A stretch of DNA of 64,000 nucleotides. It comes from a virus. Taxonomy: Duplodnaviria; Caudoviricetes. Both the position numbers and the translations under genes were made by a program. Numbering within the stretch: position 1 is the first letter of the stretch; every line of letters begins with the position of its first letter. Under the pieces are notes generated by a model. It did not search any database and had not been told where the DNA came from. It saw nothing but the letters and a program-made list of their open reading frames with translations. Positions 7,758-22,085 of this stretch are shown one piece after another. The stretch is from positions 1 through 64,000 of IMG/VR virus record IMGVR_UViG_3300031760_004865; one strand, 5' to 3'.

Positions 7758-8617
7758 CTGGGGTAGATGGAATCGGACCATCCCGGCGGGAGTTTGCACA
7801 AACTCTCCCATGAATTAAATCTTTAGCCAATCTTCATCAGATATTTTTTTGATGTCATCTTTTTTGCGAGGAAGAGAATAACTATCACACCATTTCCTAA
7901 TAGCATTATCAGTTCTTCCATATAATTCTCCTATTTTTGTGAAAGGTAATTCTCTAATTAATTTTTTTAATTCTTCACGAGTTGGTTTATCCTCAGGATG
8001 AATAGATTTTTTATAACAATCCCAACATTTTATTGCTTGTGAAGTTATTGGTTTTCCACATTCGATGCATTTATTAACTTTTTCAAGCATTTTTTCTTTT
8101 CTTTTAGGAGACTCTATTGTAATATAATTATCTAATATAGATTCATCAATCATTCCTAGAATTTTATCTATTTCATAATCTTTGCCATATATAGCATTTA
8201 GATTATTACTTGAATAAGTATCAGGTTCTCCTAATCGAATAAATTTATTTTTATTAGTTTCAGTACATAATTCAATAGGAATTAAATATCCTTTATTTTC
8301 CCAATGAGTATAAAAGAAATCAATTTGACCTATATAATTATGAAATTCACTTTGATTCCAATTATGAGTTACTACAGTAAAAGAAATTCTATTATTAGTT
8401 TCTGGATGAGCAGTTTTACACTGAATCCTATATAATTTATCTTTTATTTCTGCAATAAAATCATAACGACTTGATGGATTTGTTGGCTGTGATAAAACTA
8501 TTCCCCTTTCGCAAAACTGCATCTGACACCAAAGTTCTGTTAACTGACCTAACTGATTTGAAATATTCATTTCGCGTTTCAGCAAAGTCCCGTGCCCTAC
8601 CACTAGGCTATACCCCA
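7758..8617 (-). tRNA. tRNA-Gln(UUG), interrupted at 36/37 by a 789 nt insert (7794-8582)
   Basis: 5' half tggggtatagcctagtggtagggcacgggactttg (8617-8583); 3' half actcccgccgggatggtccgattccatctaccccag (7793-7758); acceptor and anticodon stems pair fully. Confidence 0.9.
7815..8570 (-). CDS. PD-(D/E)XK homing endonuclease (I-Ssp6803I/PDDEXK_5-like) with Zn-ribbon and HTH, inside tRNA-Gln
   Basis: GQLTELWC...SSRYDFIAEIKDKLYRIQCKT...IDFFY motif; CIECGK...KCWDC; ATG 12 nt inside the insert. Confidence 0.8.
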   Translation of the reverse strand: MNISNQLGQLTELWCQMQFCERGIVLSQPTNPSSRYDFIAEIKDKLYRIQCKTAHPETNNRISFTVVTHNWNQSEFHNYIGQIDFFYTHWENKGYLIPIELCTETNKNKFIRLGEPDTYSSNNLNAIYGKDYEIDKILGMIDESILDNYITIESPKRKEKMLEKVNKCIECGKPITSQAIKCWDCYKKSIHPEDKPTREELKKLIRELPFTKIGELYGRTDNAIRKWCDSYSLPRKKDDIKKISDEDWLKI

Positions 8618-8624
8618 TTATAAC

Positions 8625-8739
8625 AAGACACTTTCAAAAATATTGATCTACCATTTGATCTACATTTGCTATTGGCGCAAAAGATGGGAATCGAACCCAC
8701 AACACTTATCTTGAAAGATAAAATTGCTGTTTGTGTCTT
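8625..8739 (-). ncRNA. Circularly permuted tRNA-like RNA A (T arm first, acceptor closed by loop, then D arm)
   Basis: gtgggttcgattcccat-cttttgc-GCCA-ata-gcaaatg-ta-gatcaaatggtagatc; ends aagacac/gtgtctt pair; ACAGCAA bulge. Confidence 0.7.
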
Positions 8740-8742
8740 AAA

Positions 8743-8821
8743 CGGCTTTGGTAGGAGTCGAACCATACACCTCCCAAAAACAACTGGGCGTACTTCCGGT
8801 TTAAACATATACTACAAAGCC
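8743..8821 (-). pseudogene. Degenerate tRNA (Asn-like)
   Basis: Perfect acceptor ggctttg/caaagcc and ttcgact T loop, but the anticodon loop is not 7 nt and the T stem has an extra base. Confidence 0.5.
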
Positions 8822-8829
8822 AAAATACT

Positions 8830-8945
8830 AAACACTATATAACTCACCGGCCGCGCTGCCGTTGCGCCACGTCCCCATGAATGGGGACGACAAGACTCGA
8901 ACTTGTAACCTGCTGGTCCCATGAGAGTAATTGCTGTTAGTGTTT
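8830..8945 (-). ncRNA. Circularly permuted tRNA-like RNA B
   Basis: acaagttcgagtcttgt-cgtcccc-a-ttcat-ggggacg-tg-gcgcaacggcagcgc-g-gccgg; ends aaacacta/tagtgttt pair; ACAGCAA bulge. Confidence 0.75.
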
Positions 8946-8948
8946 AAA

Positions 8949-9084
8949 TCGGAGTGGCGAGATTCGAACTCGCGGCCTCGTGATCATCCAGTTGGAAGTG
9001 CTGGCCTTCCTTTACACTTTATGTATAAAATAACCGTATAACTGGCCCAAATCACGCGCTCTAGCCAAACTGAGCCACACCCCG
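8949..9084 (-). tRNA. tRNA-Pro(UGG) with a 61 nt ORF-less anticodon-loop insert (8986-9046)
   Basis: cggggtgtggctcagtttggctagagcgcgtgatttgg | insert | gatcacgaggccgcgagttcgaatctcgccactccga. Confidence 0.9.
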
Positions 9085-9104
9085 ATAACAAGGGACTTCT
9101 ATTG

Positions 9105-9176
9105 TGGGAAAAATCGGAATTGAACCGATATCTTAAACTTAAAAGGTTTATGCCTGAACCATTAGGCTATTTTCTC
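9105..9176 (-). tRNA. tRNA-Lys(UUU), enclosed by an ACAGCAA-bulged stem (9090-9206)
   Basis: taaac-ct-ttt-aa-gttta anticodon arm; atcgg-ttcaatt-ccgat T arm. Confidence 0.85.
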
Positions 9177-9250
9177 TATTAGAAAGAATTTTGCTGTATG
9201 TCCCTTTATCTTATAAATATATTATATCATATTTTTTTTTGAAAATCAAG

Positions 9251-10387
9251 TTAAATCATATATTTTTGAACGAAACTTCTATCAATTTTCTTGAAGATAA
9301 TTTTCTTTGGAGCAAGTGCTTGCTTTGCTAAAGCAATAAGTTTCTTTTGCTCTTCGGCATCTTCAATATCATAATAATAATCTTCATCTATCAGTTGATC
9401 TATATTAATCAAATCAACTGGATAAGTCATCTCACCGTTCTCTGTAATGATATGAGATGGATTAATTGTAAACCAAACACTACTCGGCAAATTAGTATTT
9501 TTGCTAAAGCCCCAAGCACGAAGACACTCTTCTCTATCACTAAATACATCAAGTCTATATGCCGGAGCCTTAAATTCCATACCATTCACTGCGATATAAA
9601 CAATATCAAAATCAGTATCAGTTCTGGCGATATTCAAATCGGCAAGTGTTTCGGCAAGTGTATAACCTTGATTAAGTTCAAAAGTAATTGCTCTCAAATA
9701 ATCATAAGTCATGTATATAGAATTGGCAAGAGTTACGATATTTTCAATTTCATCCCAATATTCAGGATTCAAATTATCAATCATATATTCTCTTACTTCT
9801 TCTGCTTTTGGAGGAAGAATTTCAAAATGATAATGAAATCTACCTGGCCTATCCAAAAGGTAAGCGTTAAGTTTTCTGACTTCATTACAAGTGATAATAA
9901 AAAGTTTCTTTCCACCATCAATGCCGTCAAATAAACTCAACATTTCTTCCTGCGGTTCGTGATGGTCATCATCCTGTCTAAAAGTCTTTTCAAACTCATC
10001 AAAAAGAACAACACATTCCTGTTCGATTGAAGCAAGGAAATCATCAATGCCGGGGATATAATCACTCACTACGACTACTGGATAACCAAGTGCCCCAGCT
10101 TTTTCGGCAAGAACTCTCATAAACATTGACTTGCCAATTCCTTTTTGTCCGCTAAGAATAAGACCAAAATTACGATCTGCTAACTGAAAAGATTTCAAAA
10201 CTTTATCTACTTTTTCAGCATGATTACCGTAGACTTTCTCAGTTACTTTGAAATCATTCCTTGTTTTTAGAAAAAATCCAGTCATTTTATTGAACCCAAC
10301 TTCATAGGCTCCTACTGGAAGTTCGCTATATGTTTTGACACTATCATCATAAATCATATACATACTGCCGCTTTGAACTATATTCAT
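9251..10387 (-). CDS. AAA+ ATPase
   Basis: Walker A GQKGIGKS, Walker B VVLFDEFEK, sensor/Arg finger LLDRPGRF. Confidence 0.85.
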   Translation of the reverse strand: MNIVQSGSMYMIYDDSVKTYSELPVGAYEVGFNKMTGFFLKTRNDFKVTEKVYGNHAEKVDKVLKSFQLADRNFGLILSGQKGIGKSMFMRVLAEKAGALGYPVVVVSDYIPGIDDFLASIEQECVVLFDEFEKTFRQDDDHHEPQEEMLSLFDGIDGGKKLFIITCNEVRKLNAYLLDRPGRFHYHFEILPPKAEEVREYMIDNLNPEYWDEIENIVTLANSIYMTYDYLRAITFELNQGYTLAETLADLNIARTDTDFDIVYIAVNGMEFKAPAYRLDVFSDREECLRAWGFSKNTNLPSSVWFTINPSHIITENGEMTYPVDLINIDQLIDEDYYYDIEDAEEQKKLIALAKQALAPKKIIFKKIDRSFVQKYMI

Positions 10388-10402
10388 CTAATTTCTCCTT
10401 TC

Positions 10403-10633
10403 TTATACTTCTTGAATAGAAAGAGAATCTATTTTACTAAGTGGTATATAATATTCAATAGGTGGGAAATCATCAATTTTCATCCAAAATAAAGGAACAC
10501 CAGTCTCTTTATTCCAACCATATTCTAATGCTATATATGTAGTTGTTTTTTCACCTTGTTCTATTGATATTGAATAATACCTATAATATTTTCCCTTCTT
10601 TGTATACATTTTTCTCTCCTTCTTATTTAACAA
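10403..10633 (-). CDS. Hypothetical protein
   Basis: Short co-oriented ORF; true start probably the second Met. Confidence 0.45.
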   Translation of the reverse strand: MLNKKERKMYTKKGKYYRYYSISIEQGEKTTTYIALEYGWNKETGVPLFWMKIDDFPPIEYYIPLSKIDSLSIQEV

Positions 10634-10634
10634 A

Positions 10635-10706
10635 TGGGAATGAGAAGAATTGAACTTCTATGACCGCGTTATCAGCACGGCATACTCACCATTGTATTAC
10701 ATTCCC
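10635..10706 (-). tRNA. tRNA-Ile(GAU)
   Basis: Cloverleaf; ccgtg-ct-gat-aa-cgcgg. Confidence 0.9.
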
Positions 10707-10711
10707 AAAAA

Positions 10712-11246
10712 CACTCCGAGAGGGAATCGAACCCCCATTTCACAGTTACGTGCTATATTCTTACTTTTCTAACTCCTTTTCAAGAATTTTTTCAATTTCA
10801 TAATCAGAAGCCCAACACATAGTTTTTATAGGAGTTTTAGCTTCAAACCGTAAAGTTTTACTATCACTACATTGATTTACAGGAACTAAATAACCTTGTC
10901 CTTCCCAGCAGGTATAAAAATAATCTATTTCATCTTTTGTATAAGAAACTCTATTTGTTCTGCCGGTTTTAGCATTTCTTGTAGATTGACAAGAAAACAT
11001 TATAGCTTTTCCAACGGTATCTGCTAAATGACTTGTTTTACATTGGACTTTTATAAATTTAGTTCCTAAATCAATAACAAAATCATATCTACAAGGTCTT
11101 ATAGGTTGATTTACAATAAATCCCAATTTAGAAAAATCTATTTGACACTATAGTTCTGTAATTAGTCCTTTTGTAATCGTATCCATATTTTTTCAAAGTA
11201 AGTTATAATACGTATTCGTGTGGTTTATCCATTATCCTACCGGAGT
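10712..11246 (-). tRNA. tRNA-Arg(ACG), interrupted at 36/37 by a 463 nt insert (10748-11210)
   Basis: 5' half actccggtaggataatggataaaccacacgaatacg; 3' half aactgtgaaatgggggttcgattccctctcggagtg; D and anticodon stems slightly imperfect. Confidence 0.75.
10761..11186 (-). CDS. PD-(D/E)XK homing endonuclease inside tRNA-Arg, 141 aa under code 15
   Basis: MDTITKGLITEL[TAG]CQ aligns with KGLITELQCQ of the Thr-insert paralogue; PCRYDFVID...KVQCKT. Confidence 0.85.
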
Positions 11247-11466
11247 ATAAGGGAAATCTGCGCCAACAGATTCCCCCAGGGCCGTAATATAATTGGCGTT
11301 ATATACGGTTTTCGTGTTTATCGGGAAAACACCGACTTAATTTCATCCCCAGTGGAATGATTTTAAGCCAAACCCGCACGCGCGTACCTCTCAACTCGTA
11401 TTCTACCTCGCCTACTATGTAGGGCGTGTCCTACCCTTCGTACTAATATAGACGTTTTTGAGAGAG

Positions 11467-11539
11467 CGTTCCCGAGAGGACTCGAACCTCTAATCCCAGA
11501 CTTAGAAGGACTGTGCCTTATCCCTTAGGCTACGGGAAC
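11467..11539 (-). tRNA. tRNA-Arg(UCU)
   Basis: Cloverleaf; cagtc-ct-tct-aa-gtctg. Confidence 0.9.
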
Positions 11540-11543
11540 AGCT

Positions 11544-11936
11544 TCATATATGATATTTATGAAAATCGTATTGCCACTCTTTATTATCTTTTGGGCCATC
11601 GGCATAAAATAACTCTTCGTCATTTACTTTTTCCGAATAGACAGTAATTGTATCTTTTCCATATAAATATTCAAATTTAGAATAAGTCCGACTTTTACAA
11701 TTCATAAGCGCAGGATCGGAAAGGATTTCTTCATATAATTGCTGAGTAATCATTGATTCATGCACTTTACTATCAGTAACAATTCTGAAAAGATATTTTA
11801 CCTGAACGTTTTCTTTTTCATTAGTTGGCGGCATAATTACCATTGCCATATATAAAGTCTCAGGAACTAATTCAAATTCTACTTCTTGTAAGCTGCGATA
11901 AAAATTCTGCGGCACTTCTTTCAAATACATTAACAT
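11544..11936 (-). CDS. Hypothetical protein
   Basis: 130 aa ORF with GAGG SD. Confidence 0.55.
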   Translation of the reverse strand: MLMYLKEVPQNFYRSLQEVEFELVPETLYMAMVIMPPTNEKENVQVKYLFRIVTDSKVHESMITQQLYEEILSDPALMNCKSRTYSKFEYLYGKDTITVYSEKVNDEELFYADGPKDNKEWQYDFHKYHI

Positions 11937-11949
11937 CTCATTTTCCTCC

Positions 11950-12279
11950 TTATGCTATATATTTATATCCATAATGAGTAAGCAAGTGTTCTATATTATG
12001 TCTTCCTACTGGATTCATTGAATGGATTGAGAAAGCACCAATTTCAATGCCCTTTTCTACAATAAACTTAGCGAAATCATACCCTGTCTTCTCCTGCCCT
12101 AAGTCGTGGTCAAAACTTATATATAAGTCTTCATACCGCATATCCTCATTGAAATTAGCAAGGTAAAAGATAGCATCTTGATATGTTTTTGCTACATAGT
12201 AAGTATCAACTATTTTACAAAAATTCTTAGATGGCTTTCTCTCATCATCAAGCCATAAACCATATTTGAATTGAGCCAT
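11950..12279 (-). CDS. Cyclic-phosphate-processing receiver-like (cREC) domain protein
   Basis: LWLDDER...ISFDHDLG..KTGYDFAKFI...IHSMNPVGRHNI pattern. Confidence 0.75.
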   Translation of the reverse strand: MAQFKYGLWLDDERKPSKNFCKIVDTYYVAKTYQDAIFYLANFNEDMRYEDLYISFDHDLGQEKTGYDFAKFIVEKGIEIGAFSIHSMNPVGRHNIEHLLTHYGYKYIA

Positions 12280-12336
12280 TTTCTTTTACCCCTTTCTCAT
12301 TTACTATATATATTATAACATTTTTTTTATAAAAAA

Positions 12337-13482
12337 TCAACCAAAAACTTCTTCTTCATCTTCATTATTTTCAGTATCATTTTCTTCTTCTTCATCCTCA
12401 GTTTCTTCTTCTTCATCTGAGTATGAAATTTCTTCTCCTGCTAAAGAATCTTCTTCGTCTACCTCTTCTTCAAGATCTGATTCATCATTGATATATTCAA
12501 TGTCATCATCATCTATATTTAATTCTTCATTATCATTATTATTATAATCTTCTTCTTCTTCGTTTTCTTCTTCGGTCCAATAACGTCTCGCACCAGCAGG
12601 TGTTCTGTAATCAACGTCACTAATTCTGATTCCATTCTCAGGATTACTTGCGTGAGTTACTGTGCCGTCGCCGTTATAAATGGTAACGTGACCAATACGA
12701 CCTTCATCATTATAATAATAAAGAATATCCCCTGCTTGTATATCATCTAAATCTACTTCTTCTCCGCCTTCTGCTTGTTCGGCAGCAGTTCTTCCAATAC
12801 TAATTCCCATATCAGAAAATACTGCCTGAGTAAATCCAGAGCAGTCAGCACCATTTGTTAGAGATTCCCCTCCCCAAACATATGGATTACCTACAAATTG
12901 TTGAGCGTATTTTACAATGGAAGAACCAGTTGTATCTCCAGAAGTAGTAGTGGTATGTCTGACTGTTTCGCCAGTTTCTTCATCTTCTTCTTCGTAATAA
13001 TAAACTGTTTCATCTGCTTCTTCATCATAGTAATAATACACTTCGGGCACTTCTTCATCTTCATCATAATAATAAGATGAATCATAGTATGCTTCTTCTG
13101 GAATATCTTCTTCGTCTTCATTATAATAATAACTGTAATTATAATTATCATCATAGTCATCACTATAACTGTAATTATAAAGACTGTCATCTCCGTTATT
13201 ATAACTCTCATTTGAGTCATAAACATGATATTCAAAATCATAGGCGTTTATCCAACCATAAGAATCAAGAGTAATACAAACCTTTGCCCAATCACCTTTC
13301 TTTTCTACGACTTCAATTTCTTGTCCGCCATAGACTTTATCAAAGGTGCGAGATTCTTTATTTGGTTCTGCATGAACTTCTAATTCTTTCGGCCAGATAT
13401 ACGCCGTTACATAATCAGCATATATAGGTGTTGTAAGAGATAGTGTAAATATAAATGATATTATAGTAATTAGTTTCTTCAT
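12337..13482 (-). CDS. Secreted SH3 + NlpC/P60 cell-wall peptidase with acidic low-complexity linkers
   Basis: Signal peptide; SH3-like block; GNPYVWGG..DCSGF...GHV..Y...HAS. Confidence 0.85.
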   Translation of the reverse strand: MKKLITIISFIFTLSLTTPIYADYVTAYIWPKELEVHAEPNKESRTFDKVYGGQEIEVVEKKGDWAKVCITLDSYGWINAYDFEYHVYDSNESYNNGDDSLYNYSYSDDYDDNYNYSYYYNEDEEDIPEEAYYDSSYYYDEDEEVPEVYYYYDEEADETVYYYEEEDEETGETVRHTTTTSGDTTGSSIVKYAQQFVGNPYVWGGESLTNGADCSGFTQAVFSDMGISIGRTAAEQAEGGEEVDLDDIQAGDILYYYNDEGRIGHVTIYNGDGTVTHASNPENGIRISDVDYRTPAGARRYWTEEENEEEEDYNNNDNEELNIDDDDIEYINDESDLEEEVDEEDSLAGEEISYSDEEEETEDEEEENDTENNEDEEEVFG

Positions 13483-13534
13483 CTTAACCTCCTTGTTTAA
13501 GGGAGGGCAGGTAATTGACTAATTGACTGGGTAA

Positions 13535-13609
13535 GGTGGCCGGTGGGACTCGAACCCGCGAACTCCGGTTCCACAGACCGGCGTGTTAACCAACTACACT
13601 ACGGCCACC
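13535..13609 (-). tRNA. tRNA-His(GUG)
   Basis: ccggt-ct-gtg-ga-accgg; G-1 and C73 present. Confidence 0.92.
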
Positions 13610-13708
13610 AAAATTGAGAAAAGAAAGGGCGCTATAAAAACGCCCCATTAATGATTTAAATTATTAGTGATTTTATATATGTATCCCATATAAAATCACC
13701 GAGGGGGG

Positions 13709-14266
13709 TTAGGGCCATTCTCCTAAGGGCTTCCCCAGCTTGCCAACTTCAACATCAGTACAATAAGCGACACCGCCACCGTTTATACTTTCAAAATCTT
13801 CAAAAAGCTCTGCGGCAAGATCCTGATATAGTGTACTGATTACGCCGTGAGGGTCATTCAAATTATCATTGAAGAACTGAACTACGCAATTCTTGAATAC
13901 TACATAGGTAAGAGGGATAAACCAATAACCATCTGCGGCAGGGCAAACACTGTAAGCATAAACCGGACTCTTCTCAAACAAAGTATCAAACAGTTCCTTG
14001 GCAGAAGTGAAAGCACGATTTGAGAACGGGCCATCAACACTAATTTTAAGAGTTACATTGCCAAACTTCTTCTCTTCTGGAAGAACCTTTGTAAGAGCAG
14101 TTGCCTTGTCTCCGTTATTAGTAGAAATTACTACTGAAGGGCCATCACCTTTTGTATTAAAATCTACATTAAGGGCAATCTGTGGGTCAGCATCAAAAAG
14201 TGCTGTAAGTTTATTCACATAAGTTACCCAAGGTGAGGAAATTTTAAGTCTTACTTCATTACTCAT
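13709..14266 (-). CDS. Hypothetical protein
   Basis: 185 aa ORF with AAGGAG SD. Confidence 0.6.
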   Translation of the reverse strand: MSNEVRLKISSPWVTYVNKLTALFDADPQIALNVDFNTKGDGPSVVISTNNGDKATALTKVLPEEKKFGNVTLKISVDGPFSNRAFTSAKELFDTLFEKSPVYAYSVCPAADGYWFIPLTYVVFKNCVVQFFNDNLNDPHGVISTLYQDLAAELFEDFESINGGGVAYCTDVEVGKLGKPLGEWP

Positions 14267-14316
14267 TTTTTTTGTTTCTCCTTTAACTCTTTTTTATTTT
14301 CCTTTTGGAAGAAACG

Positions 14317-14399
14317 CGGAGAAAGGGACTCGAACCCTTGCGACGCTAATGCGCCCTAAGAGATTAGCAATCTCTCCTCTTCACCACTTGAGTATCTCC
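14317..14399 (-). tRNA. tRNA-Ser(GCU)
   Basis: agaga-tt-gct-aa-tctct, long variable arm, G73. Confidence 0.92.
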
Positions 14400-14644
14400 G
14401 CTTATAAAAAAACCACAGACAAGAAAACCAACTTTGAGGAATGATGTAAGTCTCAAGCCTAGAGGGTAAAGAAATCTGTGGGAATATTCTTATCATTACT
14501 AAGAAAAATTATGATATGAAAAAAGGATGCCAACCCAGAGCCTGCCCTGGCGTTATAAAAAGGGAAGGAAACAAAACAAACAAAAGAAAGAGAGATGAGG
14601 GCAGGATTTCCTTCGTTGGGTCTTTATCTCATTATCATAAGAAA

Positions 14645-14717
14645 TGGCTTGTCTTGGTTCTGCCCCAAGCTCCCTGGTTCTTCAGACCAGTGCTTTCACT
14701 AGATTAGCTTACAAGCC
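14645..14717 (-). tRNA. tRNA-Phe(GAA) with atypical T loop GGCAGAA
   Basis: ctggt-ct-gaa-ga-accag; acceptor ggcttgt/acaagcc. Confidence 0.8.
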
Positions 14718-14989: not shown

Positions 14990-14993
14990 ATTT

Positions 14994-15224: not shown

Positions 15225-15251
15225 TTTGTCCTCCTCTCTTAATTTTCAATC

Positions 15252-15321
15252 AATACACATTTGGAGTCTGTCAACTCCAATTTCTTGAATGGTGACAAAA
15301 TTATTATGCTGTATGTGTATT
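15252..15321 (-). ncRNA. ACAGCA-bulged stem element with non-tRNA cargo
   Basis: aatacacat/atgtgtatt stem, ACAGCAT, inner hairpin ttggagt/actccaa. Confidence 0.45.
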
Positions 15322-15324
15322 AAG

Positions 15325-15849
15325 TGGGCCGTGATGGAGTTGCACCACCCGAGTCCGAAGACAGCAGATTTAATCTTGATCCGAGATTTGAACTCGGTAT
15401 TGATATGTTTGAAATCCTTGATTATTTTTTTGTTGGTTCAAAACGAAGTGAAATTTGTTTTTTATTTCCTGCTAAAAGTAAATCTTTCACAGGAATATTC
15501 CACATATTATATTCATTATCAACACAAAATAAATAATCAAGCTCAGGATGATTAAGAATAGAATCATAAACTTCACCTTTAGTTCCACCAGTAGAAACTA
15601 AATAAATTTCTTTATCTTTTGTTGCTGTTGCTTTACACTGGACGGTGTAAAACTTACTATCTTTCTCAATCACCAAATCATACCACTGAGTGTCATTCAT
15701 CGGGATGGATATTGTATAACCTTTAACTGTAAAATAGTTAATTGCCATACTCAGTCCTAACCTTCCCAATGTTTTACGGTTAATTTCTGTCATATCAAAT
15801 CTCCTATTCAAGCCAGTCTGCCCCGCTACTACTTACGGAATAACAACCC
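15325..15849 (-). tRNA. tRNA-Tyr(GUA), interrupted at 34/35 by a 441 nt insert (15373-15813)
   Basis: 5' half gggttgttattccgtaagtagtagcggggcagactg; 3' half taaatctgctgtcttcggactcgggtggtgcaactccatcacggccca; Tyr-type variable arm. Confidence 0.85.
15422..15793 (-). CDS. PD-(D/E)XK homing endonuclease inside tRNA-Tyr
   Basis: AGGAG SD; GRLGLSMAI...PMNDTQWYDLVIE...TVQCKAT. Confidence 0.8.
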   Translation of the reverse strand: MTEINRKTLGRLGLSMAINYFTVKGYTISIPMNDTQWYDLVIEKDSKFYTVQCKATATKDKEIYLVSTGGTKGEVYDSILNHPELDYLFCVDNEYNMWNIPVKDLLLAGNKKQISLRFEPTKK

Positions 15850-16052
15850 GTGTGGGTGGATTGGACTCTACCGTCCTAGGGCTACCACCAGTCACCCAGG
15901 CTTTTCCTCGCAAGCAAAAACCCCAAACGCAAAACCTAATCAACGCGCTTACAATTAGACTCGACCTTGGCCTTCGGTCTCCTGTTCTTTCACCATCAAG
16001 AACAGTGAAGCCGTTTGATATTGCTTGGTAGCTAATCAAGCGAATATCTAAC

Positions 16053-16126
16053 TGACGGGGCGAGGATTCGAACCTCGGAATGCTGGGATATGAACCCAGT
16101 GTCTTAGACCACTTGACGACCCCGCT
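16053..16126 (-). tRNA. Initiator tRNA-fMet(CAU)
   Basis: ctggg-tt-cat-at-cccag with three G-C pairs; 1-72 mismatch. Confidence 0.88.
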
Positions 16127-16133
16127 ATGAGTG

Positions 16134-16484
16134 TCAGATATACTCAAATTTATCATACATCTGACGATATTCTTTAACATGATTATGAGTTACAGTTCCA
16201 ATAAGAGCTTCTTTATCGTGTTCTTCTTTGATATAAATACGAGCTGTATCACTCGTTATTGCTTGCCTACCTTTCGGGCGCGTTAATAATTTAGCACAAT
16301 TTTCAATTCGTTTTGAATCAGTAGTGTTTAATTCCATTCTTCCACCCGCGGCAACTACTACAAAAATAGGTTTGCCATTTTCAAACACAGGTTTTGTTTT
16401 AGAAATATTACCAAACCATTTCACCGAATATTCTTCATATACATCAGAAACAATCAAATGAGTTTTTAGCATTACTTCTGACAT
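16134..16484 (-). CDS. Hypothetical protein
   Basis: 116 aa ORF coupled to the upstream ORF. Confidence 0.55.
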   Translation of the reverse strand: MSEVMLKTHLIVSDVYEEYSVKWFGNISKTKPVFENGKPIFVVVAAGGRMELNTTDSKRIENCAKLLTRPKGRQAITSDTARIYIKEEHDKEALIGTVTHNHVKEYRQMYDKFEYI

Positions 16485-16681
16485 TTTATTTTATCCTCTT
16501 CAATCAAAGATGAAAAGAAATCAAGTATTTCATCATTCATTTCTCTGGTGATTTTTGTTTCGCCCTGCGGCACATGCTTTGTCATATGATTAGGATTGTG
16601 TTCTTTCCAACAGGATAAAGAATGTTTAGCAATTTTCTCAGGATCTTCAAAACTTCTGTTACAAGTAGGACAAATATACAT
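16472..16681 (-). CDS. Small C2H2-type zinc finger protein
   Basis: YICPTCNRSF...IAKH..SC; GAAAGG SD; promoter directly upstream. Confidence 0.6.
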   Translation of the reverse strand: MYICPTCNRSFEDPEKIAKHSLSCWKEHNPNHMTKHVPQGETKITREMNDEILDFFSSLIEEDKIKCQK

Positions 16682-17057
16682 ATCATTTTTCCTTTCATTT
16701 GATATATATATTATATCAAAATTTTTTATAAAAATCAAATTACCGGTCTTTCACCGGTGGTTTTTAGTAGTTCCCTTCTACAATCAAACAGGTTTTACTT
16801 CTCTGTTCCGAAGTTAGAAAGAGAGGGTTTCTGTCGGGAGTGCAGTTTCAATCACTCGCATCCTTGATGGGTTCAACGACTCGTAACTGGGGTAGCTTAC
16901 GCGGATTTGTATAGTCGTTTGGCACTAGGACTTTCACCTTGTTAAGTTACGTTCTCAATACTATACTTACCGCCGCCCACTGTGGTGTCTCCCCACTGCT
17001 TCCCATCGTACAGGCTTTATTTTCTTCTCCGGCTTTTAATGCTTGCCTACCGACAAA

Positions 17058-17180
17058 TTATGCGGGTAAGGATTTGCACCTTACATGATTGAAATTTCTC
17101 GCCTTACTTAGCTTATTGCAAATCACATAAGTAAGGAATCATCTTACGCAATATACGTCTACCTATTCCGCCACCGCATA
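17058..17180 (-). ncRNA. tRNA-Leu-like RNA with degenerate anticodon arm and about 50 nt branched variable region
   Basis: tatgcgg/ccgcata acceptor, Leu-type D loop gcggaataggtagacg, gtaagg-tgcaaat-ccttac; inner hairpin ccttactta/taagtaagg. Confidence 0.6.
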
Positions 17181-17250
17181 CAGTCTTACCGATTCGAACG
17201 GCTCCTATCCTTTTCAGGGGATCGCTGCTATCCTCTACACCACAACTATA
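17180..17250 (-). pseudogene. Degenerate tRNA (Phe-like GAA)
   Basis: ccg-ttcgaat-cgg T arm; anticodon loop not 7 nt; weak acceptor. Confidence 0.4.
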
Positions 17251-17252
17251 AA

Positions 17253-17325
17253 TAGCCCGTGCGAGAATCGAACTCGCGTCTCCGGCTTGAAGGGCCAGTG
17301 TCACTTACCGCTAGACTAACGGGCC
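17253..17325 (-). tRNA. tRNA-Glu(UUC)
   Basis: ctggc-cc-ttc-aa-gccgg. Confidence 0.9.
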
Positions 17326-17446
17326 AAATATGCCAGTTTAAAACTGGCAGATCTTTTTGATGTCTAAAATAAGGAAAAAAGATCTAAAACCTCATAGTCC
17401 ATCACTTTATTTTACCCAGGAGGATTGGACGGCCTCCTGTATATAG

Positions 17447-17527
17447 CGCTCGCGGTTGGACTTGCACCAACTTCCTCATAGCAGTATCCTCAATTAAGGC
17501 GCCCTCTTATTTGGACTTACTATGAGC
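17447..17527 (-). pseudogene. tRNA-like element, isotype undetermined
   Basis: gctcata/cgcgagc acceptor-like stem and gttgg-tgcaagt-ccaac T arm; no canonical anticodon loop. Confidence 0.4.
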
Positions 17528-17640
17528 GGGTTACTCATACTCCGCACACGGCATATATAATGCCGATTTTGTTTTGGGAGATTCGGCAAACTCCTCATCT
17601 ATATTAGCCCAATGGACTGTACCTCACTTTCGTAAGATTT

Positions 17641-17775
17641 TTACTGATTCATATTGTAAGATTCAACAGTTACAGTTCCAAACCGCTCTTTGATGAACTC
17701 AACATCCTTATAGGATCTCACAAAGGTCATATGGCGTCTCTTGTCATCATCTACGTAATAAACAACATACATCAT
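17641..17775 (-). CDS. Small hypothetical protein (44 aa)
   Basis: AAGGAG SD, promoter upstream, MMYVVYYVDDDKRRHMTFV... Confidence 0.5.
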   Translation of the reverse strand: MMYVVYYVDDDKRRHMTFVRSYKDVEFIKERFGTVTVESYNMNQ

Positions 17776-17874
17776 AGGCTTTTCTCCTTTTCTTTATGAG
17801 TTCTTTATTTATCTTACATATATATTATATCAAAAATTTTTATAAAAATCAAATCAAAGAACTTTTTAGTTCAG

Positions 17875-17948
17875 TACTTCTGGTAGGATTCGAACCTACA
17901 ATTTTCTGGGTTTGAGCCAGTTGCGTCTGCCGGTTGCGCCACAGAAGC
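17875..17948 (-). tRNA. tRNA-Leu(CAA), short variable loop
   Basis: actgg-ct-caa-ac-ccaga. Confidence 0.85.
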
Positions 17949-17952
17949 ATAA

Positions 17953-18025
17953 TGGTGATTATAGGACTTGAACCTATGGCCCCCTGCTTGTAAGGCAGAT
18001 ACTCTCCCAGCTGAGCTAAACCACC
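17953..18025 (-). tRNA. tRNA-Val(UAC)
   Basis: Canonical cloverleaf. Confidence 0.93.
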
Positions 18026-18034
18026 AGAAGAAAA

Positions 18035-18107
18035 TGGAGTCGGAGGGACTCGAACCCTCTACCTCTTCCTTGCAAGGGAAGCGCTCTCCCAGGTGAGCTA
18101 CGACCCC
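18035..18107 (-). tRNA. tRNA-Ala(UGC)
   Basis: Canonical cloverleaf with G3-U70. Confidence 0.93.
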
Positions 18108-18322
18108 AAAAATAAGGAACCAATGCAGGCATCAGCCCCTCGGAAAACCTTGCGGTTTTTGATCCAAAATGCCCGATATTGCGAACTTGGCTCGGGCAGG
18201 CCGACTCATTTAATTTCTCCTCTTCCTTTTGGAAGGGATCTGTCGCTGTGACGTAACAGCGAATCCCCTGGCTCATACGTCCTAACGGGCGGGTCCACCC
18301 AAATAAAAGCATTACTGCTTCA

Positions 18323-18394
18323 CGGGACGGCAGGGATTCGAACCCCGATAGTCAGGTTAACAGCCTGAAGTCCTCACCGTTGGACGACCGCCCC
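18323..18394 (-). tRNA. tRNA-Asn(GUU)
   Basis: tcagg-ct-gtt-aa-cctga. Confidence 0.92.
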
Positions 18395-18448
18395 AGATCT
18401 GGTAAGTTGAGTTTAACGTCCCAGGCACTTACCAAGCCACTGGACCAA

Positions 18449-18521
18449 TGACTCCTGCCAGATTCGAACTGACGACTCCAGCTTGAGGGACTGGTGACTT
18501 CAACCACTTGTCGAAGGAGCC
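18449..18521 (-). tRNA. tRNA-Glu(CUC)
   Basis: ccagt-cc-ctc-aa-gctgg. Confidence 0.88.
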
Positions 18522-18994
18522 TTTTTATTTCTCAAATTTATAATATTTTTACTTCCTGTTGTAGGTAGCTATTGATTACAATTAGGACAAACCCATCTAA
18601 GATTTTCTAATCTATCATCATTATTTATTCCATTTATATGATCCAAAATCAAAGTTAATGGTTTATCATTCCATATAGGGAGCTATCCACAAATAGAACA
18701 TTTATAAGGAACATATTCTCCATTTATAAAATATTTTCTGAGAGTTTTTTGATGAGCTGTTGAGCCTTTAATAAAAATATTTTCTGGAGTTCTCTAAACT
18801 TTATCTTCTGATTTTTTAGATAAAACAAAATGATCTGTAGATAATTGTAATTTTTCAATACGCTCTTTTATTTTTGAATAAGTAGAGCTACTCTTTGTAA
18901 GATACCCACATTTTTTTAGAACATCGGCATAAGAAAGACTTTTCTAAACGAACTAAGAAAATTCTTCATCTGAAAACTAATCAACTTTAGCCAT
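18500..18994 (-). CDS. HNH endonuclease, 164 aa under code 15 (6 in-frame TAG)
   Basis: CSICG[Q]...LILDHINGINNDDRLENLRWVCPNCNQ[Q]LPT; absent from the ORF track. Confidence 0.85.
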
Positions 18995-19416
18995 TTTTTT
19001 TCCTTTCTTTATCTTATATATATATTATATCAAAATTTTTTTAAAAAATCAAATTAAGTGCTTTTGGCAGGGGCAGTTGCGTTTCCGGTATTTACACTCA
19101 TAACAAACAGTATCTAAACAGCTGTTTTTAGACTTATAAGTTATTTAGCAGGCTTCTACTGCGCCCCCCAGAAACACTTAATTTGATTTTTATATCAGGG
19201 GGCTTTATACTGCCCCCACGGTATCAAGTTCCTTTCTGTTCTCATCAGTGAGGAAAAACTGAAAGCTATCTCTTACATTCTGTCTCCGAAATTCAACTTC
19301 GGTCATATCATAATATTCTTCGCAAGTTTCATAAAGGTCAAAATCATCAAACATAATTTTTTCTCCTTTCTTAACTTTCTATAAATATTATAACATATTT
19401 TTTTTAAAAAATCAAG

Positions 19417-19686
19417 TTAGTCAATTAGTGAATCGGCAATCCATCCGCCCGTATCCAACAGACGCCAATTATAGCCATCTCTTAGAACAGTGCTTACTTC
19501 TGTGCCGTAGTCGTTTTCAAAAGTATAAACGGGGTCACCATTATATACTTTATAAGCAACGTCAAAACCAAATCCGGGGCCGTATCTTACATTAGCGTAA
19601 TTTACAGTCTCATTATAAACATACCGCTTTTTTCCGCCCCATACATTTTCAAGGGCTTCATCACTCAACTTATAGACCTGCTCCAT
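19417..19686 (-). CDS. Double-glycine leader + SH3b-like small protein
   Basis: MEQVYKLSDEALENVWGG then ANVRYGPGFGFDV...GWI. Confidence 0.65.
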   Translation of the reverse strand: MEQVYKLSDEALENVWGGKKRYVYNETVNYANVRYGPGFGFDVAYKVYNGDPVYTFENDYGTEVSTVLRDGYNWRLLDTGGWIADSLID

Positions 19687-19836
19687 ATTTTTATCTCCTT
19701 TTTCTCTTTTGGAAAAAACAGAAAAGTTACTTTCCGCGAGGTCGGTTACATTTTATACCGTTTTACTACATCTAACATAGTTAGGACTTATTGTTTCCTA
19801 CCCTCTCGCTAGGCTTCCATTCGCTTTTCTGTTGAG

Positions 19837-19909
19837 CGATCCCGACGGGTGCTGCCCCCGCTATCCCGTGCGTGACAGGCACGTGACTCTGCTGACCGTC
19901 CCCAGGACC
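19837..19909 (-). tRNA. tRNA-Asp(GUC) with atypical D arm and T loop GGCAGCA
   Basis: cgtgc-ct-gtc-ac-gcacg; G73. Confidence 0.8.
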
Positions 19910-20162
19910 AAAACCAGTTTCCCTCGTAAGGCGGCACTGGAAAACCGACTGTACAGTTTGAATTCTTTCAGTAATAACCCGCCTAAAGAACTCACAAAGT
20001 TTGGGGATAGTATTAGTCTTGTCGGTTCCTTGTTGAACTCGGGTGGCTTAACTATCATCGTCATTCCAAAGTCAGAGGAGCAGTTTTAGGTCGCACTCCA
20101 CATCAGACCTTATTTACGAGGAGCGTTGCTTCTCCCCGCCTATCTCCAAAAGATAGGATAAA

Positions 20163-20237
20163 TACGCCGCCTGGGACTCGAACCCAGCATCTTAGGTTTA
20201 TAAGACCTCTGCATAAAACCAACTATGCTAGCGGCGC
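20163..20237 (-). tRNA. tRNA-Ile(UAU)
   Basis: gaggt-ct-tat-aa-accta; canonical T arm. Confidence 0.88.
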
Positions 20238-20440
20238 TCACTCCTTTTTCTCTTTCTTATACTCTTGGAATTTTAAGCAACCCTCAATCCATTCTTCATC
20301 CGTCGGGTCGCACCTTTGAGAACCACACATTTGGCAATTCTCTTTTATAAAATCATAATTTTCTATCATATAATTCTCCTAAAATAAAAATTGCTTACTA
20401 TTACACTTAATGGCGGCGTCGAAGCAAGACCGAACCAGAA

Positions 20441-20513
20441 TGCGCCATGCGGGATTCGAACCCACGACTCCGAAATTAAAAGTTTCGTACTCTGCCAACT
20501 GAGTTAATGGCGC
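20441..20513 (-). tRNA. tRNA-Lys(UUU), second copy
   Basis: cgaaa-ct-ttt-aa-tttcg. Confidence 0.92.
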
Positions 20514-20728
20514 TAATTTTTCTGAGATTTTTCACTCGACATAAAATCAACTCCTTTTATAAATATTATAACAAAAATTTTTTAAAAAATCAAGACCATA
20601 ACGGGGTTTTTAGTTTTTATAGGAGTTACAAAATTCTCCCGCTCATTAAATCTACTCCGTTGAGGTTTAGTCAATCCTTAACTAATCATCTTGTATGTAA
20701 ATTGCTGAAATGGTCTTTAAAGCGGCTG

Positions 20729-21226
20729 TTATTCACAGCCAATAATTTTTTCAATTCGATAAGTAATACCAAGGCCGACAATCATTACCAGAGCATCTAC
20801 TCCAAAAGCAACAAGATTTTTTACAATTTTGACTGCAAATGGAATATGATATAAATAACACTCAATGCCTGTTTTGGCTCCCAGCATACCAATTCCGACA
20901 AACAAAACGATTGCCGCAATTCGTGCCCAAACATTTCTAGTACGTTTGAATACTAATCCGCATCCAAAACCTATAATCAAATTTGCTACAAACCAACTAA
21001 TACTAAAACCATACGGAGAAAATAGAATACTTTCAAGTCCGCAACCAACGGCTCCTACAAAAGCACCCCATACTCCAAATAAGCTACAAGCTAATGTCAA
21101 AGCAACATATCCCAAATCGAGCGAAATTGCTCCAATAAACGGGATTTTCATCATAGCACTTAATACACAATAAAGTGCTGTTAATAAAGCGATACATGTA
21201 ATTTTCTTTGTTGTCAGTTTACTCAT
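20729..21226 (-). CDS. ECF transporter S-component-like membrane protein
   Basis: Start MSKLTTKKITCIALLTALYCVL (GGAGG SD); several hydrophobic segments; FG...GAFVGAVG pattern. Confidence 0.75.
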   Translation of the reverse strand: MSKLTTKKITCIALLTALYCVLSAMMKIPFIGAISLDLGYVALTLACSLFGVWGAFVGAVGCGLESILFSPYGFSISWFVANLIIGFGCGLVFKRTRNVWARIAAIVLFVGIGMLGAKTGIECYLYHIPFAVKIVKNLVAFGVDALVMIVGLGITYRIEKIIGCE

Positions 21227-21354
21227 TTTTTTACCTCCAATGATATTTTTGAGTAAACCAAAAACACCATGAAGGGTATTTTTGGTTGACAGTTTAACGA
21301 CATAATTTGCGAAAATACAAACACTTGGTCGTGCTTTAAGGACAGCAAAACGAG

Positions 21355-22085
21355 AGCCGCCAGAGGGACTTGAACCCCCAACCCATTGATTTGATTCCTG
21401 GCTTAAACAAATCTCCTTTCCCAAATATATCCATAAGCAGTTTTTCTTTCGCCTTTTAATACTTGGCATATATGACTATTGTCACCATTAACTGCTTGAG
21501 CGGCTTCTTTAGCCGTTTCATAATCTGCTATTAGATTATGTTCTTTATCATATTGGAAGATTTTCATTTTTACTTTTGGTTCAGGTAAATTATTTATCAA
21601 TCTATGTAAAGTTTGTTCTATCTCATAGTTTTCAATAAAGTAAGTATCTGCTTTATTAACTTTTTTTGTTTCAAAAGATAAAAGTCTTGATACTCCTTGA
21701 CAATCATCAACTTTTATAAGATAACATTTATTATTCCAAAAAGTAGCAAAATAATCAATATCATTTACATCATATCTTTTAGTTTGAATACTATGAGAAG
21801 TATTTCCACCTTGAACTGAACGAGTAGCAAATTCTATTCCAGATTCAGTTTTATTTAGATGACAAGTTTTTACTTGAACTCTTATCAATTTTCCCTCTAC
21901 ATCAACTATCATATCATAACGGCAATCTTCACCTAAAGGAATAGATACATTATAACCAAGTTGAGTAAAAGTAGTTTGACATTGTAATTCTGTTATTAAG
22001 CCTTTTTGTTTATTTTCATTCATTTCTTTATAATTGTTACTCACCAAGAAACAAATCAATTGCGCTGCCATTGCGCTATGGCGGC
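21355..22085 (-). tRNA. tRNA-Thr(UGU), interrupted at 36/37 by a 659 nt insert (21392-22050)
   Basis: 5' half gccgccatagcgcaatggcagcgcaattgatttgt; 3' half aatcaatgggttgggggttcaagtccctctggcggct. Confidence 0.9.
21403..22023 (-). CDS. PD-(D/E)XK homing endonuclease with C-terminal NUMOD1-like domain, inside tRNA-Thr
   Basis: KGLITELQCQ...PLGEDCRYDMIVDVEGKLIRVQVKT; C-terminal QYD...Y.TAKEAA...SHICQVLKGERKTAYGYIW. Confidence 0.88.
   Translation of the reverse strand: MNENKQKGLITELQCQTTFTQLGYNVSIPLGEDCRYDMIVDVEGKLIRVQVKTCHLNKTESGIEFATRSVQGGNTSHSIQTKRYDVNDIDYFATFWNNKCYLIKVDDCQGVSRLLSFETKKVNKADTYFIENYEIEQTLHRLINNLPEPKVKMKIFQYDKEHNLIADYETAKEAAQAVNGDNSHICQVLKGERKTAYGYIWERRFV

Follow-up and report, generated by a model that had tools for sequence, protein, structure and literature searches.

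Three split tRNA genes of a phage contain inserts without a recognisable ribozyme whose ends pair with the anticodon

The tRNA-fMet gene of Synechocystis PCC 6803 is interrupted by a group I intron of 655 nt, in which a 150-aa ORF leaves about 200 nt for the ribozyme (PMC1995217). Three tRNA genes of the phage contig analysed here (a window of 64,000 nt from a contig that is 45% complete) contain inserts that resemble this element. They encode a nuclease of the same PF11645 family as I-Ssp6803I (PDB 2OST), their site in the tRNA gene is likewise the anticodon loop, and they have the character of a mobile element. They differ from it by their non-coding part of only 33–38 nt, devoid of any group I feature, and by their ends, which pair with the anticodon into a rod where the group I intron has P1 and P10.

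A second comparison is with archaeal bulge-helix-bulge introns, some of which contain homing-endonuclease genes (for example the I-DmoI and I-PorI rRNA introns). EndA cuts these introns out and RtcB joins the exons. The phage inserts likewise consist mostly of an endonuclease ORF, with short ends that pair into a helical splice motif of approximate symmetry. Of the two sites, the 5′ one is further away from the tRNA body than the 3′ one, and a protein route is implied. The bulge-helix-bulge motif consists of two 3-nt bulges, each with one splice site, separated by a 4-bp helix. The inserts cannot be assigned to this class, as their helix is continuous, without 3-nt bulges, and has 3 bp instead of 4 between the sites. 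They also differ by their position at 36/37 and not 37/38, by a nuclease of the PD-(D/E)XK and not of the LAGLIDADG type, and by a phage context in which four related records contain neither EndA nor RtcB and the host looks bacterial. The promoters are of the Firmicute type.

Similar cases are the 'enigmatic' tRNA introns of Lak megaphages (Devoto et al., preprint 10.1101/356790) and the tRNA-shaped inserts of phages. Shared features are the location in the anticodon loop of phage tRNAs, the non-group-I nature of the insert, and the presence of RNA ligases in the same genomes. These inserts mimic an acceptor stem and a T arm and often end with CCA, and this mimicry suggests cuts like those of RNase P or RNase Z. 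In the tRNA-shaped type, a T-arm hairpin is immediately followed by 7 nt that pair with the first 7 nt of the insert, and then by a discriminator with or without CCA. The inserts in the tRNA-Pro and tRNA-Tyr genes of the contig are of this type. Those in the Gln, Arg and Thr genes do not belong to this class, since no T-arm-like hairpin is found upstream of nt −10 (negative numbers count back from the insert 3′ end) and their tail is the complement of the anticodon.

Organisation of the three split tRNA genes

The genes for tRNA-Gln(UUG), tRNA-Arg(ACG) and tRNA-Thr(UGU) are all encoded on the minus strand and interrupted at 36/37, immediately 3′ of the anticodon (Table 1). In-silico joining of the exons yields clean cloverleafs with these three anticodons. 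The split tRNA-Arg was missed by ARAGORN even in intron mode, and was detected only after joining. In tRNA-Gln, the U1:A72 pair and G73 are as in bacterial tRNA-Gln. The nuclease gene fills nearly the whole insert in each case, and the flanks of 11–27 nt reported by the first-pass annotation were confirmed by measurement.

Table 1. Split tRNA genes, inserts and encoded nucleases (coordinates in the window)
Feature	Coordinates	Strand	Remarks
tRNA-Gln(UUG) 5′ exon, positions 1–36	8617-8583	minus	cloverleaf; U1:A72 + G73
Gln insert, 789 nt	8582-7794	minus	5′ flank 12 nt, nuclease ORF, 3′ flank 21 nt
Gln-insert ORF P0001, 251 aa	7815..8570	minus	PF11645, 49.7 bits; then zinc ribbon and helix-turn-helix tail
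tRNA-Gln 3′ exon, positions 37–73	7793-7759	minus	
tRNA-Arg(ACG) 5′ exon	11246-11211	minus	
Arg insert, 463 nt	11210-10748	minus	5′ flank 24 nt, ORF, 3′ flank 13 nt
Arg-insert ORF P0002, 141 aa	10761..11186	minus	PF11645, 53.6 bits; nuclease domain only
tRNA-Arg 3′ exon	10747-10712	minus	
tRNA-Thr(UGU) 5′ exon	22085-22051	minus	
Thr insert, 659 nt	22050-21392	minus	5′ flank 27 nt, ORF, 3′ flank 11 nt
Thr-insert ORF P0003, 206 aa	21403..22023	minus	PF11645, 79.7 bits; NUMOD-like DNA-binding tail
tRNA-Thr 3′ exon	21391-21355	minus	

A helical rod at the exon–insert junctions

The ends of the inserts lengthen the anticodon stem into a rod. Above the stem, it consists of the U33:A37 pair, the anticodon paired with the last three nucleotides of the insert, insert nt 1–7 paired with nt −10 to −4, and a distal helix in which the stop codon is found. 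In the Arg insert, the stop codon lies within a distal CUUA/UAAG helix. The pairing of nt 1–7 had been proposed from a first reading of the sequence as imperfect in Gln and Arg, which is the case: 5 of 7 positions are paired in Gln (CUGAAAC/GUUUGUG), 6 of 7 in Arg (UAUUAUA/UAUAGCA, one G-U), and 7 of 7 in Thr (UUCUUGG/CCAGGAA, one G-U). The pairing of the last three nucleotides with the anticodon, also proposed, is perfect in Gln (CAA/UUG) and Arg (CGU/ACG) and contains one U-U in Thr (UCA/UGU). When the insert ends were cofolded, a continuous rod was obtained in all three cases, with z-scores against shuffled partners of −2.9, −3.4 and −4.7. The last value is that of the Thr insert, where 16 of the 17 positions from position 27 to insert nt 7 are paired, the remaining one being a U-U. 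The earlier proposal that a single continuous helix contains both presumed splice sites, with 3 bp between them, is supported. The two junctions are on opposite strands of the rod, roughly symmetric about position 35.

The junction cannot be placed from the cloverleaf alone, as all positions from 33/34 to 36/37 yield legal loops. Three observations place it at 36/37. With any other choice, not all relatives would have standard anticodons. The position agrees with the class II body seen in Ser(GCU), and an intron-less tRNA-Gln of a related phage (L086) has an identical 17-nt anticodon stem-loop.

The comparison set consisted of 48 distinct introns from other phage contigs, representing 13 anticodon classes. 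Their median length is 474 nt, with median flanks of 26 and 13 nt, or about 39 nt of non-coding sequence. The anticodon is paired with the insert end at 139 of 144 positions (shuffled controls: mean 75, maximum 96), and the helix pairs hold at 275 of 336 (mean of shuffles 160). U33 is paired with R37 in 48/48 introns. In 47 introns, the first insert nucleotide is paired with nt −4, in 46 of them by a Watson-Crick pair. The minimum-energy fold retains the junction pairs in 47/48. Many of these introns have a 1×2 internal loop that is absent from the Gln and Thr inserts of the window. In the rods of the 48 introns, G-U pairs number 69 versus 8 for A-C, an excess that shows the pairing to be selected in RNA. 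As it covaries with 13 anticodons and G-U is far above A-C, the helix is under selection at the RNA level. Judged from these 48 relatives, the design of an insert that pairs with the anticodon and has no apparent ribozyme is widespread among phages. With the anticodon stem included, the rods comprise 18–35 bp (median 27 bp).

Fate of the split tRNAs and candidate processing enzymes

The split tRNAs retain the features of functional genes. In the 48 relatives, 334 of 336 acceptor-stem positions remain paired across the insert, and the isotypes are each represented by many different stems. Of 18 split tRNAs in 10 genomes, 16 are not accompanied by an intact gene for the same anticodon, and both tRNA-Lys(UUU) genes of one genome are split. 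The 32-38 pair, which is typically non-Watson-Crick in working tRNAs, is kept as such in 29/48 introns although it weakens the rod.

The explanation that best fits these data, with a probability of roughly 0.45, is that the inserts are real tRNA introns without ribozyme, which would be removed by protein-dependent excision and ligation. To our knowledge, tRNA introns of such a kind, removed by proteins, have not been described for bacteria or phages. Each element would be mobile, a homing-endonuclease gene enclosed by an RNA rod. At the DNA level, as the family membership of the nuclease suggests, an enzyme of the I-Ssp6803I type would cut, at the anticodon, those copies of its tRNA gene that have no intron, and the element would then be copied in at 36/37. 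Indirect support comes from related phages, in which one and the same tRNA occurs with and without the intron. At the RNA level, the insert ends close onto the anticodon loop as described above, and a structure-specific, metal-dependent endonuclease, encoded by the host or the phage, would cut both strands inside the helix to leave 3′-OH and 5′-phosphate ends. Both sites are flanked by Watson-Crick pairs, which, by established RNA chemistry, should disfavour in-line attack by the 2′-OH and favour hydrolytic cutting. The tRNA body would keep the two exons together, and the nick in the anticodon loop would be sealed by an RNA ligase, ATP-dependent and of the Rnl1, Rnl2 or Rnl5 type, such as most of the related phages encode.

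The first-pass annotation had suggested a protein route with a ligase, and possibly a phage enzyme cutting double-stranded RNA. The ligase part is consistent with the gene content of the relatives, 24 of 28 near-complete ones having an RNA-ligase-family match (PF09414). An Rnl5-like ligase is found in G003, a T4 Rnl1-like ligase in G001, and a T4 Rnl1-type gene in G049, an 87%-complete relative outside the 28. No Rnl was found with PF09414 or PF09511 in three near-complete, intron-bearing relatives (G014, G027 and G034), and no RNA ligase in the contig under study, only 45% complete. The phage cutter found no support: EndA (PF01974), RtcB (PF01139) and RNase III are all missing from four related records (G000–G003), one of which is a complete genome of 188 kb. 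RtcB might be supplied by the host. As a long irregular double-stranded rod with sites on both strands, the structure resembles bacterial RNase III substrates such as rRNA processing stems and the early sites of phage T7, and its median of 27 bp compares with the approximately 20 bp required. It differs from them by the stagger that the junctions imply, which is 3 nt, whereas RNase III leaves a 2-nt 3′ overhang. We know of no nuclease that cuts double-stranded RNA with a 3-nt 3′ stagger.

That no splicing enzyme can be named favours the main rival explanation, namely a selfish, unspliced insert: a nuclease gene would have landed in the tRNA gene and disabled the tRNA. The rod and tRNA body would then serve the element, both as a scaffold giving the nuclease mRNA processed and protected ends and as a long stem controlling or protecting translation of the nuclease. 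The region of the start or stop codon is indeed often inside the rod, and the drive of homing can outweigh the loss of an accessory phage tRNA. Recent or repeated homing into tRNA genes that still work, rather than long-term maintenance, could account for the intact exons and for the covariation in the acceptor stems. A tRNA scaffold selected because it stabilises the nuclease mRNA could do so as well. However, a scaffold needs a stem only, and not exact pairing of 13 different anticodons right up to the junction. Nor would it account for a 32-38 combination that is not optimised for the rod, or for split tRNAs without a spare copy. Inserts without ORF in neighbouring tRNAs are inexplicable by nuclease expression. 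This explanation is considered somewhat less probable than protein-dependent excision. One such ORF-less, tRNA-shaped insert is the 61-nt insert in tRNA-Pro of the same contig, which serves no nuclease gene.

Encoded nucleases and search for a ribozyme

The assignment of the nucleases to the I-Ssp6803I family, made earlier from the sequence, is borne out by PF11645 scores well above the cut-off of 26.1 bits (Table 1), by a phmmer match of the Thr-insert protein to 2OST (E = 2e-6), by the predicted fold and by the D...QxK motif. D35, Q48 and K50 are invariant in 31 nuclease sequences. The AlphaFold model of the Arg-insert protein (pLDDT 93.5) matches 2OST with TM 0.78–0.80. Its top structural hits are the 2OST chains (TM 0.68–0.80), followed by EcoRV and Hjc, and no EndA chain is among the matches listed. 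The predicted fold is thus that of a DNA homing enzyme and not of the EndA type, so that nothing specific supports a use of the nuclease on RNA. Codon 13 of this ORF is an in-frame TAG, aligned with Gln in relatives.

It was nevertheless considered whether the encoded PD-(D/E)XK enzyme itself might be the splicing nuclease, cutting the RNA rod with a 3-nt 3′ stagger. On DNA, I-Ssp6803I leaves 3-nt 3′ overhangs at the anticodon, and the stagger and symmetry about position 35 of the RNA junctions match this pattern. An intact ORF with the three invariant residues is kept in every intron examined, and PD-(D/E)XK chemistry yields the 3′-OH and 5′-phosphate ends required by Rnl-type ligases. Against this stand the close match of the model to a DNA enzyme and the difference between A-form RNA and B-form DNA. 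Moreover, the DNA target is repeated only by the exon-side half of the rod, insert nt 1–7 being unrelated to positions 37–43. The 1×2 loop is common to introns whose nucleases are 30–45% identical, which argues for a common factor. The proposal is judged improbable.

The inserts have no recognisable ribozyme. In line with the expectation of the first-pass annotation, the scan of positions 7500–22400 with Rfam covariance models gave no group I or group II intron match, even at E ≤ 10, and that of 20 related loci gave no intron match at E ≤ 1. A conserved RNA core buried in the ORFs is not indicated either, as synonymous changes are spread along their whole length, without any stretch where they are suppressed. 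In group I introns, the 5′ exon ends with a U paired to a guide near the intron 5′ end, and the intron ends with a G. Here, the last nucleotides of the 5′ exons are G, G and U, the partner of these exons is the insert 3′ end and not a guide near the 5′ end, and the inserts end with A, U and A; assignment to group I was rejected on both counts. Self-splicing by a catalytic RNA that escaped recognition, either a group I core, highly reduced and overlapping with the ORF, or a small ribozyme of a new kind based on the rod, is very improbable: the homologous I-Ssp6803I does reside in a true group I intron, and divergent or ORF-interrupted introns can escape Rfam models, but the lack of Rfam matches, the little non-coding sequence, the terminal nucleotides and the variable synonymous sites speak against it, as does the location of both sites in a regular helix, a poor geometry for in-line attack.

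Without self-splicing RNA, proteins would have to remove the three inserts. The same would apply to the ORF-less insert of tRNA-Pro which, if this tRNA is still used, must likewise be removed without a ribozyme.

Split tRNA genes and other RNAs of the array

The tRNA array occupies the minus strand of the window between 7.7 and 22.1 kb. In silico joining of the exons yielded a clean cloverleaf from each of the Gln, Arg and Thr genes. Each insert contains one ORF of the PF11645 nuclease family (49.7–79.7 bits, cut-off 26.1), with 5′ and 3′ non-coding flanks of 12 and 21 nt in Gln, 24 and 13 nt in Arg, and 27 and 11 nt in Thr. The first-pass annotation had paired the insert ends with each other and the insert tail with the anticodon, and both pairings proved correct on recheck in all three genes. 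When cofolded, the insert ends form a continuous rod that prolongs the anticodon stem into the insert, through the anticodon/tail pairs and then the pairs between insert nucleotides 1–7 and nucleotides −10 to −4 (counted from the insert 3′ end). The z-scores against shuffled partners were −2.9, −3.4 and −4.7 for Gln, Arg and Thr, respectively.

The cloverleaf alone leaves the junction ambiguous: every placement between 33/34 and 36/37 is compatible with a legal loop, and each yields its own anticodon. Ordinary anticodons are obtained in every relative only with 36/37, other junctions yielding A34 or stop anticodons. The Ser(GCU) cases are built on a class II body, as is required of serine tRNAs, and an intron-less tRNA-Gln of a related phage contains a 17-nt stem-loop identical to the product of a 36/37 join. 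The junction was therefore placed at 36/37.

As anticipated by the first-pass annotation, no Rfam intron family matched the window inserts at E ≤ 10, and no group I or II intron was found at E ≤ 1 in 20 related loci. The hallmarks of group I introns, namely an exon ending in U, a guide near the intron 5′ end and a terminal G, are absent. A ribozyme buried in the ORF was rejected: within the Pro, Thr and Asn groups, where pairwise nuclease identity ranges from 50 to 100%, synonymous substitutions are distributed throughout the ORF and no stretch shows their suppression, which argues against a conserved RNA core within the coding sequence. The inserts also differ from archaeal bulge-helix-bulge introns, since bulges are absent and the sites are separated by 3 bp instead of 4.

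Other unusual RNAs populate the array. The ORF-less insert of tRNA-Pro(UGG) looks like a mimic of an acceptor stem and T-arm, representing the other class of phage tRNA insert; the 136-nt span is still recognized as tRNA by Rfam (52 bits). A fourth PF11645 nuclease, P0004, lies in a class II tRNA gene that is best read as tRNA-Tyr(GUA) split at 34/35, an assignment to tRNA-Ser(GGA) having been dropped in view of a homologue in the related phage G003 and of the first-pass annotation. At the 3′ end of the P0004 insert stand a T-arm-like hairpin and a strand that can pair with the first 7 nt of the insert, and the G003 homologue (L089, G003:2701-6063) ends in ...UUCAAAC-ACCA, a full tRNA-like 3′ end. 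Two tRNA-like RNAs are circularly permuted, the 3′ half preceding the 5′ half, and match the Y RNA-like family YrlA below threshold (36 and 28.9 bits, gathering score 69); weak YrlA matches likewise occur in related loci L094, L105, L106, L116, L123 and L167. Between the tRNA genes are G+C-rich, apparently structured non-coding stretches of 200–400 nt with neither ORF nor Rfam match at E ≤ 10. One class II gene resembling tRNA-Leu, called by neither ARAGORN nor Rfam, has an apparent short hairpin insert in its anticodon loop. In related phages, another insert family in class II-like tRNA bodies (G003:1543-2366, minus strand; G008:84320-85152, plus strand; L135:20-333) carries ...GUAGUAAGAA just 5′ of exon 2 and does not follow the anticodon-complement rule. 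Another related tRNA array contains, outside the nuclease insert, a match below threshold to the type-P1 twister ribozyme (L115:757-807, plus strand; 41 bits, gathering score 67, E = 1e-5).

The window is the first 64 kb of an 82-kb IMG/VR contig with a completeness of 45% (CheckV), and no near-identical record was found in the annotated phage collection. Its terminase and portal genes, its strong Shine-Dalgarno sites and a near-identical promoter repeat, TTGATTT-N17-TGnTATAAT (17 copies, 0.02 expected by chance), suggest a tailed phage with a Firmicute-type host. The repeat is an extended −10 promoter of the sigma-A type, and stands upstream of most short gene cassettes and tRNA blocks. In-frame TAG codons align with Gln in relatives, as in the nuclease ORF of the Arg insert, so that TAG is read as Gln. 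In-frame TAGs also occur in an HNH-type ORF and in the late structural genes. No CUA-anticodon tRNA was detected on the contig.

Positions of the features in the window
Feature	Position	Strand	Remark
tRNA-Gln(UUG)	exons 8617-8583 + 7793-7759	-	insert 789 nt
tRNA-Arg(ACG)	exons 11246-11211 + 10747-10712	-	insert 463 nt
Nuclease ORF of Arg insert	10761-11186	-	in-frame TAG
tRNA-Thr(UGU)	exons 22085-22051 + 21391-21355	-	insert 659 nt
tRNA-Pro(UGG)	8948-9085	-	insert 61 nt
Host gene of P0004	15325-15849	-	
P0004 ORF	15422-15793	-	
Permuted tRNA-like RNAs	8617-8730, 8828-8944	-	
tRNA-Leu-like gene	about 17060-17215	-	
G+C-rich stretches	about 19740-20150, 17390-17640, 16800-17050, 15830-16050, 11250-11460	-	
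Promoter repeat	9219-9249, 12310-12340, 22397-22427	-	3 of 17 sites
HNH-type ORF	about 18540-19010	-	several in-frame TAGs
Late structural genes	50-62 kb	+	up to 9 in-frame TAGs

Anticodon pairing across the intron family

Viral contigs were scanned with an alignment of five nuclease-domain sequences, which retrieved 78 loci. The ORF lies inside a tRNA gene in most of these (55 by count of the tabulated loci; ARAGORN intron mode). Removal of duplicates and of five ambiguous cases left 48 distinct introns, including the three of the window, in 13 anticodon classes (Thr, Gln, Asn, Lys, Pro, Ser, Met, Gly, Ile, Trp, Val, Arg and one doubtful Ala). Median intron length is 474 nt, and the corresponding flanks measure 26 and 13 nt.

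Pairing was compared with 2000 shuffles of the 48 introns. The last three insert nucleotides pair with the anticodon at 139 of 144 positions (shuffle mean 75, maximum 96), and insert nucleotides 1–7 with nucleotides −10 to −4 at 275 of 336 (shuffle mean 160, maximum 189). U33 faces a pairing purine 37 in all 48, and the pair between insert nucleotide 1 and nucleotide −4 is Watson-Crick in 46. As G-U pairs greatly outnumber A-C mismatches (69 versus 8), the pairing acts at the level of the sense-strand RNA and not as a DNA inverted repeat. A transposon-like element with terminal inverted repeats and a target duplication was discarded on the same ground, and also because the three nucleotides of the element reverse-complement the anticodon instead of repeating it directly.

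The layout is nearly two-fold symmetric, with seven pairs (27–33/37–43), three pairs (anticodon/insert tail) and seven pairs (insert nucleotides 1–7/−10 to −4), the two junctions bounding the middle three pairs on opposite strands. Past the last 7-bp segment, many related introns, the window's Gln and Thr inserts not among them, share a 1×2 internal loop (A on the 5′ strand, CA on the 3′ strand). A distal helix follows in all introns and usually encloses the stop codon, giving a whole rod of 18–35 bp (median 27). The junction pairs are retained in the minimum-energy fold of 47 of the 48. The structural finding is real, statistically strong and much broader than the three inserts initially noticed.

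No ORF-less rod-type insert was found in the tRNAs with short introns at the retrieved loci; of the listed inserts, several have a tRNA shape and a CCA end, and others carry an ACAGCAA-type motif. A genome scan was made for a bacterial chromosome with such an insert in its only essential tRNA, a situation that would make splicing obligatory; all contigs retrieved came from metagenome bins and had tRNA arrays of phage-like appearance. The nuclease-in-tRNA design is present on contigs binned to Bacillota, Clostridia, Ruminococcus and Bacteroidales (L251–L257 and L260), all of which resemble phage tRNA arrays and not bacterial chromosomes.

Exon upkeep and candidate splicing enzymes

Removal of the inserts by proteins is the best available explanation and a candidate process, to which we give a probability slightly below one half (about 0.45). 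Indirect evidence bears on whether the split tRNAs remain in use. The exons, about 470 nt apart, form acceptor stems paired at 334 of 336 positions, and these stems are diverse, with 11 distinct ones among 13 tRNA-Thr and 8 among 10 tRNA-Pro. The usual non-pairing 32-38 combination of tRNAs is retained in 29 of the 48 introns despite interrupting the rod. The idea that an intact spare accompanies each split tRNA was not borne out: in nine complete or near-complete relatives and this contig, 16 of 18 ORF-split tRNAs lack an intact gene for their anticodon, and in one genome both tRNA-Lys(UUU) genes are split. The main rival, a selfish insert that stays unspliced and uses the tRNA as a chassis, is judged less likely, though still a serious contender. 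Intact, well-paired exons could also come from repeated homing into healthy tRNA genes, or reflect selection for a tRNA scaffold protecting the nuclease mRNA.

If proteins do splice the inserts, a cutter and a ligase would be needed. The first-pass annotation had considered a phage-encoded double-strand RNA cutter, a proposal that found no backing, as RNase III, like RtcB and EndA, is missing from four records of related phages, including a complete one of 188 kb. RNase III would fit the length of the rod and not its 3-nt stagger. RNase P is a further candidate. Each junction sits on the 5′ side of a 7-bp helix, the opposite strand of which continues as a 3-nt tail. The neighbouring tRNA-shaped inserts point to tRNA-processing enzymes.

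The ligase part of the same proposal fared better in the relatives than on the contig itself. Among intron-bearing genomes at least 90% complete, 24 of 28 have a PF09414 match (E ≤ 0.001), and a small number of these matches could be NAD-dependent DNA ligases. In three near-complete genomes, PF09414 and PF09511 are both absent. ATP-dependent RNA ligases are encoded by related phages G002 and G003 (Rnl5-like, with a PHA02142 OB domain and PF09414) and G001 (T4 Rnl1-like). On this 45%-complete contig, no RNA ligase was detected with PF09414, PF09511 or the G003 ligase protein. Rnl-type ligases join a 3′-OH to a 5′-phosphate, and EndA and small ribozymes use cyclic-phosphate chemistry. From this established chemistry, Rnl-type ligation appears better suited to a hydrolytic cut in a regular helix than to the cyclic-phosphate route.

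That the encoded nuclease itself cuts the RNA, also suggested at first, is improbable and found no specific support. The overhang left by I-Ssp6803I presumably matches the 3-nt stagger, in which case the intron's own enzyme would fit. The nuclease model (pLDDT 93.5) closely matches the DNA enzyme I-Ssp6803I (PDB 2OST, TM 0.78–0.80), EcoRV and Hjc ranking next and no chain of EndA being among the fold matches listed. In addition, the DNA target of that enzyme is repeated by the rod in its exon-side half only. We attach equally little weight to a dual use of one selfish protein, whereby an I-Ssp6803I-type enzyme would copy the element into tRNA genes as DNA and also excise it from the pre-tRNA, a phage RNA ligase then closing the anticodon loop. 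The RNA rod would be recognized by mimicking the 3-nt-staggered geometry of the DNA site. Such a system, if true, would be a bacterial-virus counterpart of archaeal EndA and its bulge-helix-bulge, evolved independently from a restriction-enzyme fold.

Significance for phage tRNA introns

Splicing of tRNA by enzymes is a hallmark of archaea and eukaryotes and, to our knowledge, tRNA introns of bacteria and their viruses are thought to be removed by self-splicing only. The present family is widespread, with more than 50 phage contigs; its members are ribozyme-free, have an endonuclease gene inside and always pair with the anticodon. No description of such introns was found in the literature: a preprint on Lak megaphages mentions 'enigmatic' phage tRNA introns, some tRNA-like, and proposes no mechanism (10.1101/356790), and work on crAss-like phages called introns from endonuclease domains alone (PMC7886860).

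Unspliced, the inserts would still be new, as a homing gene whose own RNA chassis would consist of a tRNA body and an anticodon-pairing rod. If they are spliced, this would be a third route of tRNA intron removal. Phage Rnl1, Rnl2 and Rnl5 would gain a routine job besides repair, and the under-count by tRNA finders in large recoded gut and rumen phages would be accounted for. The family would then offer a living model of how protein-spliced introns may arise from mobile group I introns after loss of the ribozyme.
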